A stretch of DNA of 64,000 bases. Source: Patescibacteria group bacterium. Its GTDB lineage: Bacteria; Patescibacteriota; Minisyncoccia; Phycocordibacterales; Phycocordibacteraceae. Made by a program: the position numbers and the translations under genes. Position 1 is the stretch's first letter. The number at the start of each line of letters is the position of its first letter. The DNA is taken from contig JAZJYZ010000001.1 in the NCBI GenBank assembly GCA_040390125.1, positions 163,698-227,697 on the forward strand. Reading direction: 5' to 3'. The notes beneath the pieces are model-generated. The model saw only the letters and a program-made list of their open reading frames with translations. It did no database searches and was not told the DNA's origin. Below are positions 2,926 through 61,900 of the stretch, piece by piece.

Positions 2926-3317
2926 ATGTAATTTTGTTCAATAAATTTCTCGGATTTCTAATATCAGTAGGGTACTACACTTAAACCATTCTGTCAAGTA
3001 CTTCTTTCCGAGCATTTTTTAGCCGTATTTTTGGTATTTTCTCGCTTCTATTTTTAATGTTTTCTTTTATTTTTTATTTCTAATGTTTCGCCCTCCTACC
3101 GCCTGTTTCGCTTCCGCTCAACATCGGCGGTTCCCGAAACGGGATCGGAGGAAAATTGAAGCAGTTCAATTTTCCTCCCCAAAAGCCAAAAGCCAAAAGC
3201 TCAACGCTTCCCTGATGTTAGCCTGTATACAGAATGCGCGTACCTTGACAAGTAGTTATATTGCATGTAGGATGACCACCATTAGATTGGGTTTATTAAT
3301 TCCCAGATTTAATTCTA

Positions 3318-3626
3318 TTGCATAAATTTATGAACAATGAAGGTATAGGTATGACTTCCGGCCTCTCAAGACGTGGGAAAATCCGACGTGGAGGTTTAGT
3401 GCAAGCTGGTGGATTCACGGCTGGAGCTGCAGTTGTGGGAGTCATCGGTGAACGTATTTTGGCCGCTCATTCTGGCTTTAGTTTTGACAGTAGCTTTAGA
3501 GACAATCTACCTGCAATTATAGGGGAAGTCACAAACAATTTTGCTGGCCTTCTTGGTATTCTTGGTATTAAGGGAATGGCGGAATTACTTCTTGGGAAAA
3601 AAATTGTTTTAAGGACAGAAAAATAA
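3318..3626 (+). CDS. Hypothetical 102-aa glycine-rich protein (GxxxG zippers; C-terminal FAGLLGILGIKGM), a possible paralog of 2557-2925
   Basis: ORF followed by a clean terminator; upstream TTGACAagtag...TAGGAT promoter-like sequence at 3247-3275. Confidence 0.5.
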   Translation: MHKFMNNEGIGMTSGLSRRGKIRRGGLVQAGGFTAGAAVVGVIGERILAAHSGFSFDSSFRDNLPAIIGEVTNNFAGLLGILGIKGMAELLLGKKIVLRTEK

Positions 3627-6791: not shown

Positions 6792-7274
6792 ATGAGGTGT
6801 CAGCTTTCAGCTTTCAGCTTTCAGGCGACGCCTCGTCGGATCCGAAGGGATCATAGGAGGAAAGAAAGCTTTTCGCGAGGGATGACACTTATTGAAGTAG
6901 TCGTCGCCGTCTCTTTGATGCTTATAATTTTCTTGGGATTTTTTGGTGCCTATGTGGCGTCTGCTGACTTGGTGCGGAGCACTTCTGCCCGAAGTGGAGC
7001 TCTCTTTCTTATGGCAAACAGAATGGAATACATAAGGGGGTTGGCGTATGGCTCTATAGGTACTGTGGGTGGAACGCCGTCAGGAAGTCTTGTGGCTAGT
7101 GAGCCAAGGATTTTGAATGGTATTACTTACACCATTCGTACAACGGTTGCATACATTGATGACGGAGCGAATGGTGCCGGTGCCGGCGATTATAAAACAG
7201 TGAAAGTTGAAGCAGATTGGAATTTTAGAAATGTCTCACAAAGTATCTCTACTGTTACCTATGTCGCACCGTAA
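6792..7274 (+). CDS. Type IV pilin / pseudopilin with a prepilin-type N-terminal methylation motif (SRG|MTLIEVVVAV); true start uncertain
   Basis: Class III signal hallmark G followed by xTLIE with E at +5 and a hydrophobic helix. The only in-frame ATG upstream gives a 30-aa leader overlapping the AGCTTTCAG repeats; ATG at 6882 would give no leader. Confidence 0.75.
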   Translation: MRCQLSAFSFQATPRRIRRDHRRKESFSRGMTLIEVVVAVSLMLIIFLGFFGAYVASADLVRSTSARSGALFLMANRMEYIRGLAYGSIGTVGGTPSGSLVASEPRILNGITYTIRTTVAYIDDGANGAGAGDYKTVKVEADWNFRNVSQSISTVTYVAP

Positions 7275-7857: not shown

Positions 7858-9104
7858 AGAATCTACCTCAGGTTCCAGCTTTCAGGTTCCAGCTTTCAGC
7901 TACAGGCAACAGAAGGGTGCGGGGGTTTTTGACGATTTTTGTACTCGTTGCTTCCTCCGTGTTTTTATTTTTACTCTCTGAGCTTATGGGCTCACTGACG
8001 TTAGAGCGTTTAGGGGGAACAATAGAGGCCGACAGTGAAAAAGCTTTTCATATAGCCGAAGCCGGGCTTGAGTACTATCGTTGGCACTTTGCAGAGTTTC
8101 CAGGTGATCTACAAGACGGTACTGCAAGTGCGGGGCCCTATGAGCATGATGTAGCGGATCCAGAAACTAGTAACACAATTGGAACATTTTCTCTTGATAT
8201 CTCAGGCATAACTTCATGCGGTGTACTCACATCCGCCACAGTGAACTCAACTGGTTCCATGGCTAGTAGCTCAACACACCGAACTACGTTGATTGCTGAA
8301 TATGGAAAACCCACACTTTCCGCATCAACGAGTCCGGCGAAGTCCGATGCTACAGCAATTGCAACATCGCTCCCAAGTTTGAAGACGTACGCACAGTCGT
8401 CAGGCGTTTACATTGCGACATCCACAGGGTATGGATACAAAATTGTTTTCAAATCGAACGGAACATTTGATGCGTCGCCCGTTACTGGTGTCACGGAGGT
8501 ATGGGGGTATTCAACGGATGATGGGTGGCAACAAGAGGATACGATTATTTCTACAACAGGTGTTGCGGTGAACCATACTGTGCCTTCCGAATGTCCGGTG
8601 GTATTTGTTGAAGATACTGTCTGGCTTCAAGGCACTGTTTCGGGCAAAGTTACGTTAGTTTCCGCAAATATAACAAACGCTGGCGTCGATCCGAATATTG
8701 TACTTACCGGAAACATTACGTACGCCCACGCATACGATGATGGTTTTACGGCGATTGCTGAAGATTCAGTACTGATATCACTAGATTCTCCTGACGTCAT
8801 GCAACTCTCAGGAATCTATGTAGCCAGCAAGGGTCACTTTGGGCGGCATCGCTATGATGCATCCGGCACTCACGCTGTTCCCGTAAGCCTTCAGTCGTCA
8901 GTGCTCCGCTCCACCCTCAACACATTTGGGACATTTGCTTCAATGGAGACAGTTGATACTAAATGGCTCTCTTCCGGTGCGTTTATTTCAGGCTATAGCA
9001 CAAGGACTGATGTCCATGATCCTTTCTTAGGAAAGCTACCTCCGCCGTTCACTCCGGTTACTTCAAATGACTTCCGTTTCACAGACTGGAGAATACAGGA
9101 GTAG
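7854..9104 (+). CDS. PilX-like minor pilin / pilus-associated protein (N-terminal TM helix, then an AFHIAEAGLEY motif typical of the PilX N domain)
   Basis: TM helix LTIFVLVASSVFLFLL followed by an A.AEAG motif; a GTG at 7917 is an alternative start, because the first 60 nt are AGCTTTCAG repeats. Confidence 0.6.
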   Translation: MKNLPQVPAFRFQLSATGNRRVRGFLTIFVLVASSVFLFLLSELMGSLTLERLGGTIEADSEKAFHIAEAGLEYYRWHFAEFPGDLQDGTASAGPYEHDVADPETSNTIGTFSLDISGITSCGVLTSATVNSTGSMASSSTHRTTLIAEYGKPTLSASTSPAKSDATAIATSLPSLKTYAQSSGVYIATSTGYGYKIVFKSNGTFDASPVTGVTEVWGYSTDDGWQQEDTIISTTGVAVNHTVPSECPVVFVEDTVWLQGTVSGKVTLVSANITNAGVDPNIVLTGNITYAHAYDDGFTAIAEDSVLISLDSPDVMQLSGIYVASKGHFGRHRYDASGTHAVPVSLQSSVLRSTLNTFGTFASMETVDTKWLSSGAFISGYSTRTDVHDPFLGKLPPPFTPVTSNDFRFTDWRIQE

Positions 9105-14520: not shown

Positions 14521-14623
14521 AGGTTAGGTGTCAGCTGCCAGCTTTCAGGTTCCAGCTTCTCTTAATTCAAAGCTGAAAGCTGGAACCTGAAAGCTTCCTC
14601 TCTAAAATGTTACCATGTCCTAA

Positions 14624-22400: not shown

Positions 22401-22460
22401 ACAGGTAGCTGTCAGCTTTCAGGTGTCAGCTTTCAGCTTTAAATCTAGAACTTCATAATT

Positions 22461-23201: not shown

Positions 23202-23395
23202 ATTTTTTAGCTTTCAGCTGTTAGCTTACCGCCTAGCGAGGTGAGAGGAAAGCGAATTCTTGCTTTCCCGAGGGAGCGACGGCGGAAAACCCTTTTAGGG
23301 TTTATAAGCTTATAGCTTTAAACAGCAAAGTTTCAAAAGACTTTCTTCTCCTCCCTGAAAGCTGTAAGCTATAACCTGAAAGCTGGTAGTTCAAT

Positions 23396-40810: not shown

Positions 40811-40860
40811 TTAGGCTTAGAGCTTCTAGCTTTCAGCTTTTAGGGAGGAAAAACAAAAAT

Positions 40861-48283: not shown

Positions 48284-48336
48284 AATCAAAGCTGTCAGCT
48301 TCCGGCTGTCAGCTTACAGCTTTAAATAGCAAAAGC

Positions 48337-55391: not shown

Positions 55392-56003
55392 ATGAATACA
55401 GATGCAAAATTTGAGAATGAGCGCACGCTAGTCATATTGAAGCCTGACGCTGTGCAACGCTCTCTCGTGGGCGAGATAATGAAGCGTATTGAAAGGACGG
55501 GACTAAAGTTTGTGGCCTTCAAGTTTGGTATCGCTACGGAAGATCAACTTGTTCGTCACTACAATAAGGACGAAAAGTGGTTTCTTGAGAAAGGAACTCG
55601 AATATTGAATGACCGAACCACCCATAACTTGCCAATAGAGAAGGATGCGCTTGGGTACGGTAAAGAAATAATAGATTCAATAGTGAAATTCATGACTGCA
55701 GGTCCTGTATTAATGATGGTGATTGAAGGAAATGAGTCAGTAGCCGTTGTGAAGAAGCTTGTGGGTGCCACAGAGCCAAAGACATCGGATGTCGGGACTA
55801 TTCGAGGTGACTACACTGTGGATTCGTATGACCACTCATCGGTACAGAGTCGTGCCGTCAGAAACCTCGTCCACTGCTCTGAATCTCCTGAAGAAGCATC
55901 ACGTGAAATTGCCGTGTGGTTTAAGCCCGAAGAAATTTTGAAATATCGTATCGTTCAGGAGCAGATCCTCTACGATGTGAACCTTGACGGGATAATGGAG
56001 TAG
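55392..56003 (+). CDS. ndk: Nucleoside diphosphate kinase (with an internal insertion)
   Basis: LVILKPDAVQR..., ...NLVHCSESPEEASREIAVWF. Confidence 0.88.
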   Translation: MNTDAKFENERTLVILKPDAVQRSLVGEIMKRIERTGLKFVAFKFGIATEDQLVRHYNKDEKWFLEKGTRILNDRTTHNLPIEKDALGYGKEIIDSIVKFMTAGPVLMMVIEGNESVAVVKKLVGATEPKTSDVGTIRGDYTVDSYDHSSVQSRAVRNLVHCSESPEEASREIAVWFKPEEILKYRIVQEQILYDVNLDGIME

Positions 56004-56041
56004 CTTCCAGCTTCCAGCTTCCAGCTTCCAGAGAAAATTGT

Positions 56042-56350
56042 ATGTTTTTAGGAAGGCAAGATGATGCAGTAACAGTAGCCCCTGAGGTACATTCTGTTGT
56101 ATTTGAGAATGAAAAAATTAGAGTTTTAGATGTTGTTGTTCCTGTGGGTTATAAAAGTGGATTGCATTGGCATCCCCAGAATATGGGATATGTTCTCACT
56201 CCGGGCACTTTGCGGTTCACTTTGCCTGATGGGGCAGTAAAAGATGTAGTGTTGTCTCTGAATCAGGTTACACAAGGGGAAGGTGCACATATCGTTGAAA
56301 ATATAGGCACTGAGACCGTAAGAGTGATGCAAATTGAATTCAAGAATTAA
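56042..56350 (+). CDS. Small cupin-domain protein
   Basis: GLHWHPQN...GEGAHIVEN cupin motifs. Confidence 0.65.
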   Translation: MFLGRQDDAVTVAPEVHSVVFENEKIRVLDVVVPVGYKSGLHWHPQNMGYVLTPGTLRFTLPDGAVKDVVLSLNQVTQGEGAHIVENIGTETVRVMQIEFKN

Positions 56351-56411
56351 AGTTTTTTAAGCTGGAACCTGACAGCTGGCACCTGAAAGCTGAAAGGCAT
56401 GGTACGCTTTT

Positions 56412-56612
56412 AGAGGGGTTAGTGACGGAGTATTAACCTCGTTGAAAAACTTTAGGGAGCTTTACATCGTTATGTGCTGGTGACTCCCTTTGGGGGATTC
56501 CGAAGCCCATTAACTGCGAGCACCCACCTGGAGCTTCGGCTCTAAGGTTAATACTCCGTCAGTGACCCTTTCAAATTCCGCCGTACGAGCAGAGTCTTGT
56601 GGCGGTTTTTTT
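56412..56612 (+). ncRNA. Candidate structured ncRNA (6S-like or regulatory leader). A roughly 23-bp closing helix pairs 56415-56438 with 56545-56567, internal hairpins lie between them, and an intrinsic terminator sits at 56578-56612
   Basis: Long-range complementarity gggttagtgacggagtattaacc / ggttaatactccgtcagtgaccc seen directly; internal gggag...ctccc and gagcttcggctc (UUCG loop) hairpins; T-run. Confidence 0.35.
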
Positions 56613-56655
56613 ATTTTTGCCTAATTACAGACCTGCGTTTGCTACTATAGAGACT

Positions 56656-58032
56656 ATGGAAAAATCTATTTCTATTATGTTTGCACGTGGCGCAAGGCGG
56701 GTCACGGGCTCTAACTTTCTTGTTGAAGCCAAGAGCGGTGACACTACTACACGCATTCTTATTGATTGCGGACTTGCTCAAGGGGAGCGTTTCTGTGAAT
56801 CAACAAACAAGGATACATTTTCCTATGAGCCAGCATCTGTTGATGTTGTGCTGTTTACACATGCACATGCTGACCACATTGGACTATTCCCCAAACTTGT
56901 TAAAGATGGGTTTAAGGGGCGAGCTTTCGCAACAGCTCCTACCAAAGCACTCACTCCCATAATGCTCGAGGACTCCGTAAAGATAATCGCACTCGAAGCA
57001 AAGAGGTGCAACGATGAGCCACCATACGGCACGGAGGACGTGCTTCGGGCAGTAGAGTACATTGATGAAGCGGTCTATGAAAAACCTATCAATCTCGCAC
57101 CTGGCATTACTGCAACGTTCAATAATGCAGGGCACATACTAGGCTCCGCTACGATTCTTCTTGATATCTTTGGAAAGAGAATTCTTTTTACAGGAGATCT
57201 AGGTCGTGTGCCCGCAGCTATTGTTCCAGATAGAGATGTCCCGGAAGGGGTAGAATTTCTCGTGACTGAGAGTGTGTATGGTAATAAGACGCACGGCTCG
57301 CTCCAAGAGAGTGAGGCAGTACTCCTCTCGGCAGTGAGGGGAGTTGTTGCAAACGAAGGAACGCTTTTAATTCCTGCTTTTTCACTTGAGCGCACACAAA
57401 TTATTCTTGCGTCTCTTGATAAGGCAATTACAAGCGGGGCCATCCCGCCAGTTGCTGTATTTATGGATTCTCCTCTCGCCGCAAAAGTGACCGATGTATA
57501 TCGGAAGTATCCAAAATTTCTTCGTGCTGATATCAGAGCACGATTAGAGAGTGGAGATGACCCTTTTTCATTTCCAAGCCTCAAAGTGAGCGTGCATCCG
57601 GATGAATCAGACGCCATTGATCGGCATCCTGGCCCTAAGATAATCATTGCGGGTGCTGGCATGAGTCACGGTGGGCGTATACGGAGGCACGAAGCGAAGT
57701 ATCTACCCCAGAAATCAACCACACTTCTCCTGGCAGGCTATCAAGTGCCGGGAAGTTTAGGGCGAAGACTCAAGGACGGTGCAAAAAGCGTGGATATTGA
57801 TGGTGTACGGGTCGCTGTGCGAGCGTCCATTGCCTCTACTGATGGTTTTTCGGCGCATGCTGATAAAGATGACCTCATGACATTTGCTGAGGCGGTGAGT
57901 CCAAAGCGTGTGTTTGTAGTATTAGGAGAAACTGAAGCTTCGGCATTTTTAGCTCAGCGTATCGCAGGGTTCTTGAACATCCCCGTTGATGTACCGAGGG
58001 AAGGGGAAACATACGAAATCCCTCTTGTTTGA
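56656..58032 (+). CDS. Beta-CASP MBL-fold RNA-metabolising hydrolase (RNase J / CPSF-like)
   Basis: HAHADH motif; about 458 aa; start at ATG 56656 downstream of the terminator. Confidence 0.8.
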   Translation: MEKSISIMFARGARRVTGSNFLVEAKSGDTTTRILIDCGLAQGERFCESTNKDTFSYEPASVDVVLFTHAHADHIGLFPKLVKDGFKGRAFATAPTKALTPIMLEDSVKIIALEAKRCNDEPPYGTEDVLRAVEYIDEAVYEKPINLAPGITATFNNAGHILGSATILLDIFGKRILFTGDLGRVPAAIVPDRDVPEGVEFLVTESVYGNKTHGSLQESEAVLLSAVRGVVANEGTLLIPAFSLERTQIILASLDKAITSGAIPPVAVFMDSPLAAKVTDVYRKYPKFLRADIRARLESGDDPFSFPSLKVSVHPDESDAIDRHPGPKIIIAGAGMSHGGRIRRHEAKYLPQKSTTLLLAGYQVPGSLGRRLKDGAKSVDIDGVRVAVRASIASTDGFSAHADKDDLMTFAEAVSPKRVFVVLGETEASAFLAQRIAGFLNIPVDVPREGETYEIPLV

Positions 58033-61457: not shown

Positions 61458-61499
61458 CCACAAATACAAAAGCCCGCCTAAGCGGGTTTGTATTTGTGG
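61458..61499 (-). terminator. Long palindromic hairpin ccacaaatacaaa-agcccgc-ctaa-gcgggtt-tgtatttgtgg overlapping the tmRNA 3' end; presumed ssrA terminator
   Basis: About 19-bp inverted repeat seen directly. Confidence 0.55.
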
Positions 61500-61900
61500 A
61501 GGTGGGGAGAGTCGAACTCCCGTACGAAGAGGGTCTCCGAAATGTTTCTACAAGACATAGTTCGTTTCAAGATTTAAGACAGGTGGGTAGAGAACGAACA
61601 AAATGACACCTATCCGAGCTCTCCAATTTCATTCTTTTCTACGAGCAGTAGAGAAGAATATAGCCTGATGTTATGGCACTAGAAACTTCGTATCAGACGT
61701 CAGAAGTCTAGCGCCGTCCCGACCGAAGTGAGGACGGAAGAGGTAGCTTACGCTAATGCCAACGCGAAGTCAGCACGAGTGAAGTAGCCCTTTATAGTAG
61801 AAGCGTTTGCACGTTTCAGTGCTCGAGGTTTAAGGTGTTCTCCAGCATTCACCGTCTTGCGCACAACAGAGGAAATTCTCCGTCGAAACCAGTCACCCCC
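61497..61900 (-). ncRNA. ssrA: tmRNA (SsrA), about 404 nt. The 5' end is GGGGGUGACUGGUUUCGACGG; the 3' tRNA-like end is GGGAGUUCGACUCUCCCCACCUCCA with CCA not encoded. The predicted tag reading frame ends ...ADFALALA*
   Basis: The 5' end matches the conserved tmRNA start GGGGCUGAUUCUGGAUUCGACGGG; the T-arm UUCGA and acceptor pairing GGGGGUG/CACCUCC include a G3:U pair; an alanine-rich tag ORF stop lies at 61748; smpB is adjacent. Confidence 0.8.

Follow-up and report, generated by a model that had tools for sequence, protein, structure and literature searches.

A conserved structured RNA upstream of a beta-CASP ribonuclease gene in Paceibacteria, probably a divergent 6S-type RNA

Introduction

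6S RNA is an RNA that regulates RNA polymerase and is among the few nearly universal regulatory RNAs of bacteria. Whether the Paceibacteria carry such an RNA is the question raised by a locus in a 64-kb stretch of DNA of a Patescibacteria group bacterium, which was analysed as a whole and is called the window here. In an initial annotation, a structured RNA of ~200 nt, followed by a terminator of its own, had been proposed between a small "cupin" gene and an RNase-J-like gene, either as a discrete 6S-like RNA or as a leader of the ribonuclease gene. In the literature searched, no link of 6S RNA with Patescibacteria, the candidate phyla radiation, Parcubacteria or Saccharibacteria was found, and nothing relevant was found on non-coding RNAs or Rfam families in Patescibacteria. 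The analysis presented here supports the gene boundaries, the conserved structure, the match of a sequence motif to 6S RNA and the feasibility of a 6S-like refolding. By analogy with known 6S RNAs, the RNA is probably a divergent, previously unannotated 6S-type RNA of Paceibacteria, encoded by an independent gene analogous to ssrS.

The locus and its neighbouring genes

On the + strand of the window, an open reading frame of 102 amino acids (56042-56350) is followed by the RNA and by a beta-CASP gene:

56656-58032, + strand: beta-CASP metallo-hydrolase gene, with its ATG at 56656

The label "cupin" for the upstream open reading frame corresponds to a Pfam Cupin_2 match that stays below threshold (18 bits against a cutoff of 27.2). 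The downstream gene does belong to the beta-CASP proteins, as was claimed, but it does not encode RNase J proper. The closest solved structure is the ribonuclease TTHA0252 (E = 6e-73), and the protein, whose relatives number in the hundreds, is therefore assigned to the TTHA0252/CPSF-73 type. A protein with 100% identity to it is encoded in a metagenome-assembled Patescibacteria genome. An extended -10-like sequence, TGcTACTAT, ends 7 nt before the ATG of this gene (56640-56658), and no obvious Shine-Dalgarno sequence precedes the ATG. Taken together, these two features suggest that the beta-CASP mRNA of the window may be leaderless or nearly leaderless.

For comparison, 80 Paceibacteria loci were collected with a profile scan, with one genome per species. 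The typical gene order in the relatives is a TraG-like ATPase, ndk, the RNA, a membrane protein of about 130 amino acids and the beta-CASP protein. The predicted membrane protein carries the motif YWxxWWxDIxMHxxGG and matches no Pfam family above threshold. Its gene is missing from the window and from seven other loci, so that the beta-CASP gene is the first downstream gene in eight loci, and it is present in the following:

Between the RNA and the beta-CASP gene: gene of the ~130-amino-acid membrane protein in L003, L006, L007, L009-L013, L016, L043 and L054
In the same position in further loci: L063, L068, L071, L078 and L080

In the window, the small "cupin" open reading frame is inserted between ndk and the RNA, where most relatives have no gene. 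In the corresponding region of locus L001 (3240-3689), there is a gene for a GNAT acetyltransferase. The spacer between ndk and the RNA looks like a place where small accessory genes are inserted. The "cupin" open reading frame is flanked by inverted arrays of heptamers (56002-56027 and 56359-56384) that are 81% complementary. Such 7-nt tandem arrays consist of three to six copies of the units GCTTTCA, GGTTCCA, GCTGTCA or GCTTCCA, occur in both orientations and are found at these positions of the window:

6803-6823, 7871-7898, 14534-14594, 22408-22442 and 23356-23390: 7-nt arrays
40815-40842, 48291-48325, 56003-56030 and 56356-56397: 7-nt arrays

The heptamer unit has 34 matches in the window with at most three mismatches, compared with 6.0 ± 2.6 in shuffled sequences. 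Nine of the ten clusters are intergenic, and at least nine short intergenic spacers are filled by them. The array at 56356-56397 lies directly upstream of the predicted promoter of the RNA, and L001 has TAAGCTA/TAAGCTG repeats in the corresponding place.

A tmRNA gene is located at 61494-61900 on the - strand, a few kb downstream of the beta-CASP gene, and is also found a few kb downstream of this gene in L054, L071, L010, L009 and L007. The neighbourhood of ndk, the 6S-like RNA, the beta-CASP gene, open reading frames resembling rplT, rpmI and infC (named by eye from their translations in the window) and tmRNA may be conserved as a whole, with the tmRNA being the element that was checked in other loci.

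Structure of the RNA

The body of the RNA spans 159 nt (56413-56571, + strand) and consists of a closing helix of 26 bp that encloses a domain of about 105 nt. The transcript and its elements are as follows:

56400-56408, + strand: extended -10 promoter, TGgTACGCT, with the hexamer TACGCT at 56403-56408
56413-56439, + strand: 5' strand of the closing stem (helices 1 and 2 of the covariation alignment)
56440-56454, + strand: 5' strand of the central bubble, CGUUGAAAAACUUUA, 15 nt, A/U-rich, unpaired in the consensus
56455-56525, + strand: apical stem-loop, an irregular stem with GGG at 56455-56457 paired to CCC at 56523-56525
56485-56497, + strand: apical hairpin, UCCCU (56485-56489) paired to GGGGA (56493-56497)
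56520-56529, + strand: nearly invariant block GCACCCACCU at the junction of the apical stem and the 3' bubble
56526-56528, + strand: ACC linker
56529-56544, + strand: 3'-bubble hairpin, UGGAGC-UUCG-GCUCUA, opposite the 5' bubble strand
56545-56571, + strand: 3' strand of the closing stem
56572-56577, + strand: spacer of 6 nt
56578-56612, + strand: intrinsic terminator, CCGCC (56578-56582) and GGCGG (56601-56605) followed by seven T (56606-56612)

The folding energy of the + strand of 56351-56655 is -109.4 kcal/mol (z = -4.5 against dinucleotide shuffles, with none of 100 shuffles as good), while the - strand gives z = -3.3. A closing helix of 23 bp had been described earlier. The helix itself is present and slightly longer, as it consists of 9 bp (56413-56421 with 56563-56571) and 17 bp (56423-56439 with 56545-56561) that are separated by a single G/G mismatch (G56422/G56562). 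The part of the closing stem near the bubble, ...AUUAACCU, is conserved in both sequence and pairing.

Within the enclosed domain, two internal hairpins had been proposed. The UUCG-looped gagc/gctc hairpin is present and forms the 3'-bubble hairpin. The other one, gggag...ctccc, has to be withdrawn, since GGGAG (56455-56459) is not paired with CUCCC: covariation instead supports the GGG:CCC pairing at the base of the apical stem, with the distal ...GC-A-CCC as the partner of GGGAG, and the UCCCU stretch pairs locally with GGGGA to form the apical hairpin. In the apical stem (56479-56506), an internal loop with UGGUGA on the 5' side and (U)CCGA on the 3' side is conserved in sequence in the closer half of the family, and it may be a protein-contact or tertiary motif.

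Conservation and covariation in Paceibacteria

The initial annotation named covariation in homologous loci as a check of the proposed fold. With nhmmer and the RNA of the window as query, a homologous sequence was identified in each of the 13 closest loci, where it precedes the beta-CASP gene in the same orientation. A covariance model was built from six close sequences and rebuilt from 16 sequences, after which the loci were searched again. With nhmmer and the two covariance models, the RNA was found in 49 of the 80 loci (+ strand, E < 0.05), 50-700 nt upstream of the beta-CASP gene. The search space consisted of the 80 loci around this gene. In every locus with a match, the RNA shares the strand of the beta-CASP gene and has ndk on its other side. 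The 64-kb window holds exactly one copy, and the family model clearly distinguishes the strands, with 155.8 bits on the + strand and 34 bits on the - strand.

Aligning 15 homologs with MAFFT and folding them with RNAalifold resulted in only 11 pairs. Indels had misaligned the closing stem, and therefore an iterative alignment with covariance models was adopted, from which the 26 best sequences were used for the covariation analysis (alignment A7). In this alignment, 87.1% of the cells in paired columns are paired, compared with 67.1 ± 0.9% in shuffles; fitting the alignment to the model inflates such pairing counts somewhat, but the margin is large and the folds of single sequences agree, with the same shape obtained for each of 15 homologs. 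Compensatory changes are present in 48 of the 55 pairs. Changes on both sides of a pair were counted in 291 cells, compared with 99.7 ± 9.4 in shuffles and with at most 69 when the pairing partners were slid by one to three columns.

Covariation is found in all five structural elements of the RNA. Compensatory changes are seen in every one of the 25 pairs of the closing stem (helices 1 and 2, with 88-89% of the cells paired), in 19 of 25 pairs of the apical stem (helices 3-6) and in four of five pairs of the 3'-bubble hairpin (helix 7, with 84% of the cells paired). The GGG:CCC pairing is invariant in all 26 sequences, and the GCACCCACCU block is conserved in all of them, with C127-C133 and T135 invariant in the alignment of 15 sequences. 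The 5' bubble strand is 13-20 nt long throughout the 26 sequences and is unpaired in the consensus. The fold is thus kept through compensatory changes in homologous loci.

Locus L054 has two tandem copies of the RNA, at about 3040-3260 and 3384-3522. Each copy has its own TATACT box, its own GGGAG and CACCCACCU motifs and its own terminator. Tandem 6S genes have been described in the Bacillus cereus group (PMC7726162), which these copies recall.

Promoter, terminator and transcription unit

The extended -10 element upstream of the RNA suggests, from the usual spacing, a transcription start at about 56413-56416, that is, at the first pairs of the closing stem. The TAnnnT element is invariant in the alignment of 15 sequences, and in all 50 family members it ends 4-8 nt before the closing stem. 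Its context is also partly conserved, with a T at -3 in 37 and a G at -2 in 33 of these 50 members. The pattern TGnTAnnnT is not enriched in the window (79 matches, with 117 expected), and for this reason the promoter call rests on the positional conservation in 50 genomes.

A simple terminator scan missed the terminator at 56578-56612, whose loop and bulge are beyond the limits of that scan, and folding recovers it. Both its presence and its position shortly before the next start codon agree with what had been reported, with 43 nt between the last T and the ATG. A hairpin with a run of at least four T follows the closing stem in 42 of the 50 family members. In several loci, for example L012, L039 and L045, another hairpin with a T-run lies just before the promoter of the RNA and was read by eye as the terminator of ndk. 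The primary transcript would thus be about 200 nt long, from about 56413-56416 to 56612. From the promoter and terminator sequences conserved in about 50 genomes, the RNA gene is predicted to be a transcription unit of its own, which is in agreement with the discrete RNA that had been proposed.

Comparison with 6S RNA

A rod shape and a length of about 200 nt are described for 6S RNAs, in which a closing stem and an apical stem flank a largely unstructured central bubble (PMC8876501). In the B. subtilis type, a small hairpin in the 3' bubble strand lies opposite a large 5' bulge that holds the start site of product RNAs (PMC8876501, PMC8414754). The Paceibacteria RNA has the rod fold of closing stem, central bubble and apical stem-loop (PMC8876501), the large unpaired 5' bubble with the opposite 3' hairpin (PMC8414754) and, at the apical edge of the bubble, the G-C pairs and the CCCACCU-type sequence of the 6S consensus (Rfam family RF00013). 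These elements follow each other as in canonical 6S RNA, and the hairpin in the 3' bubble strand is small and pre-formed, as in B. subtilis 6S-1. Also, the predicted organization as a stand-alone gene of about 160-200 nt would agree with that of 6S RNA. The closing stem of the window is unusually regular for a 6S RNA, with 26 bp and one mismatch.

GGGAG and GCACCCACCU are the only nearly invariant sequences of the family, and the latter matches the most conserved block of the RF00013 consensus. In this consensus, GGGagc ... gcaCCCACCUgga aligns to GGG...GCACCCACCU of the RNA at the same structural position. E. coli 6S has CACAUUCACCU at the position of the block, with the local layout CACAUUC-ACCU followed by a hairpin-forming stretch.

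A scan of Rfam at the gathering thresholds, with the window and 16 homologous loci, gave only tmRNA. In E-value mode, a search of 57 kb of loci is too insensitive for a 6S match of about 18 bits, and searches were therefore performed on 500-600 nt. In a 601-nt search of the window (56200-56800), RF00013 matches with its full model (1-187) at 18.4 bits and E = 0.16 over 4227 families, which for the 6S family alone corresponds to about 0.16/4227 ≈ 4e-5. The bubble boundaries, the GGG:CCC stem and the CCCACCU block of this match coincide with those that covariation gave independently, and the 5' bubble strand (56440-56454) aligns to the 5' bubble of the consensus. Of the distant members, L016 (17.1 bits, full length) and L078 (18.0 bits) also match, while L013 and L007, the remaining two of the five members tested in 500-600-nt searches, give no 6S match at E <= 10. 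None of the members tested reaches the gathering score of 46.4 bits, the best being 18.4. In the reciprocal direction, the family model R2 (filters off) gave no full-length match to E. coli ssrS, with a best score of 2.1 bits.

An Infernal-type scan for 6S, SRP, RNase P and riboswitch models had been recommended with the initial annotation. 6S is the sole family found on the RNA body, below threshold, and no other Rfam family, including SRP, RNase P and riboswitches, matches 56200-56800 at E <= 10. The 6S-like appearance noted at that time is supported by the architecture, the motif and the sub-threshold matches in three of five members; formal membership of RF00013 is not reached. The similarity to RF00013 is weak, but recurrent and structurally coherent, and the RNA falls outside the family as Rfam models it: it is too divergent to be detected at threshold and is missed by the 6S model of Rfam 15.

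Lineage-specific 6S-like RNAs are known from other bacteria. 6S-Flavo and Bacteroidales-1 are 6S-shaped, are missed by the general 6S model and were found by comparative genomics, and Rfam keeps them apart from RF00013. They belong to other phyla than the Paceibacteria RNA. Both families were presumably among the 4227 scanned, and neither matched here at E <= 10; if so, the Paceibacteria RNA would be a further separate lineage. Ms1 RNA is longer than 6S RNA and is not known outside Actinobacteria. It is structurally related to 6S RNA and acts on RNA polymerase, with binding to the polymerase core rather than to the holoenzyme (PMC9130861).

The same comparison bears on a second reading, in which the RNA is a stand-alone structured RNA with another, undescribed function specific to Paceibacteria and its 6S-like shape is convergent or coincidental. 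For the TTHA0252-type beta-CASP protein, such an RNA could act as partner, substrate or decoy, or it could be a scaffold for another protein. The scores of only 17-18 bits, the absence of a match in two of the five members and the failure of the family model to detect E. coli 6S all fit this reading. So does the constant position between ndk and the beta-CASP gene. This neighbourhood is not known for 6S genes: in E. coli, the 6S gene lies upstream of a gene for 5-formyl-THF cyclo-ligase, and in lactic acid bacteria, it lies near upsA/rarA (PMC8414754). The conserved apical internal loop UGGUGA/CCGA points in the same direction. To our knowledge, this loop has no counterpart in 6S RNA. However, all architectural features of 6S RNA are present and covary, and the sole strongly conserved block coincides, at the equivalent junction, with the block that is most conserved in the 6S consensus. 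In addition, no Rfam family but 6S recurs on the RNA body, and limited sequence identity is normal among true 6S RNAs (PMC8876501). A different function is regarded as a serious but rather unlikely explanation.

Proposed mechanism and the neighbouring ribonuclease

With the 6S-type reading, E. coli 6S and B. subtilis 6S-1 suggest a mechanism by analogy. Together with its flanking helices, the bubble of the rod would mimic an open promoter and occupy the active site of the holoenzyme of RNA polymerase with the housekeeping sigma factor. The invariant GGG:CCC pairs and ACCU would mark the upstream fork of the bubble and belong to the counterpart of the non-template strand. Short product RNAs may be templated by the A/U-rich 5' bubble strand together with the conserved ...AUUAACC strand of the closing stem, and they would then be antisense to about 56425-56443, for example 5'-AACGAGGUUAAUAC. 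The hybrid with such a product RNA would free the GGU of the 3' strand, which would then be available to the ACC of the invariant block. Pairing of ACC with GGU would lengthen the pre-formed 3'-bubble hairpin, leading to collapse of the bubble and release of the polymerase.

In E. coli 6S, an extended 3'-bubble hairpin drives release (PMC8876501), and this hairpin is extended with the freed 3' strand. A similar fold is obtained for the Paceibacteria RNA: 24 of 26 members form a longer 3'-bubble hairpin, through additional ACC:GGU pairs, when the 5' strand of the closing stem is blocked in folding. This result serves as a feasibility check and is partly built in, since the closing stem ends in ACC:GGU. 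In the window, the hairpin grows from 6 bp to about 9 bp.

A further possibility, which we consider quite doubtful, is that the RNA and the neighbouring TTHA0252-type beta-CASP ribonuclease form a functional module, so that the RNA is not simply the 6S RNA of Paceibacteria. In one variant, the nuclease would mature or destroy the RNA and thereby release RNA polymerase, as an alternative or in addition to release by product RNAs. In another variant, the RNA would regulate or guide the nuclease. Such a link is conceivable because RNase J1 of B. subtilis, also a beta-CASP protein, matures 6S-1 and degrades 6S-2 (PMC10578484). If true, a link between an RNA and a nuclease would be hard-wired in the genomes of a whole class of ultra-small symbiotic bacteria.

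Leaders and other explanations

The RNA could also be a cis-acting leader, an attenuator or riboswitch that controls the membrane-protein and beta-CASP genes through the terminator, and a leader of the ribonuclease gene had been offered as the alternative in the initial annotation. The order of promoter, structured RNA, intrinsic terminator and genes on the same strand is shared with leaders and riboswitches. Also, the RNA lies immediately upstream of the downstream genes in all loci and in the same orientation, and the terminator stands between it and these genes, in the window only 43 nt from the ATG. The pairing evidence argues against this explanation. In 38 transcripts folded, no mutually exclusive terminator and antiterminator pairings were found; in 37 of the 38 minimum-energy folds, both the closing stem and the terminator are present, without cross-pairing. 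The 5' arm of the terminator pairs with the RNA body no better than shuffled arms do (mean z = -0.23, with two of 38 below -2). Furthermore, the terminator sequences are not conserved across the alignment of 15 sequences, unlike the RNA body, and no riboswitch or leader family of Rfam matches this body. The first downstream gene varies as well, being the gene of the ~130-amino-acid membrane protein in most genomes and the beta-CASP gene in eight, and the beta-CASP gene of the window has the -10-like sequence of its own near the ATG. Unlike leaders, the RNA has a very stable end-to-end closing helix that starts at the predicted +1. Since no antiterminator pairing is seen and another gene intervenes in most genomes, a leader or riboswitch is very unlikely, and this alternative was given up.

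A divergent copy of SRP RNA or RNase P RNA or an inverted repeat of a mobile element is suggested by the long terminal inverted repeat and, for the first two, by the often divergent housekeeping RNAs of CPR bacteria, but it is highly improbable and effectively refuted, as Rfam shows neither SRP nor RNase P here at E <= 10, the size of ~160 nt and the shape do not fit RNase P RNA, and a mobile repeat is at odds with an RNA that occurs once in the 64-kb window, keeps the same syntenic place in about 50 genomes and has compensatory changes instead of repeat-like identity.

Implications for Paceibacteria

The presence of a 6S RNA in Paceibacteria would not be very surprising, since 6S RNA is nearly universal. 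The alignment and the model would allow the annotation of this RNA gene across a large class of uncultivated bacteria. The conserved linkage to the beta-CASP gene offers a testable lead on the turnover of the RNA. The family also provides a distant lineage for asking which features of 6S RNA are universal, with the GGG:CCC-ACCU junction and the extendable 3'-bubble hairpin as candidates. If the 6S reading is right, a global regulator of RNA polymerase has been retained in these bacteria, which are genome-reduced and probably host-dependent, and this would have a bearing on growth arrest and outgrowth in Paceibacteria.
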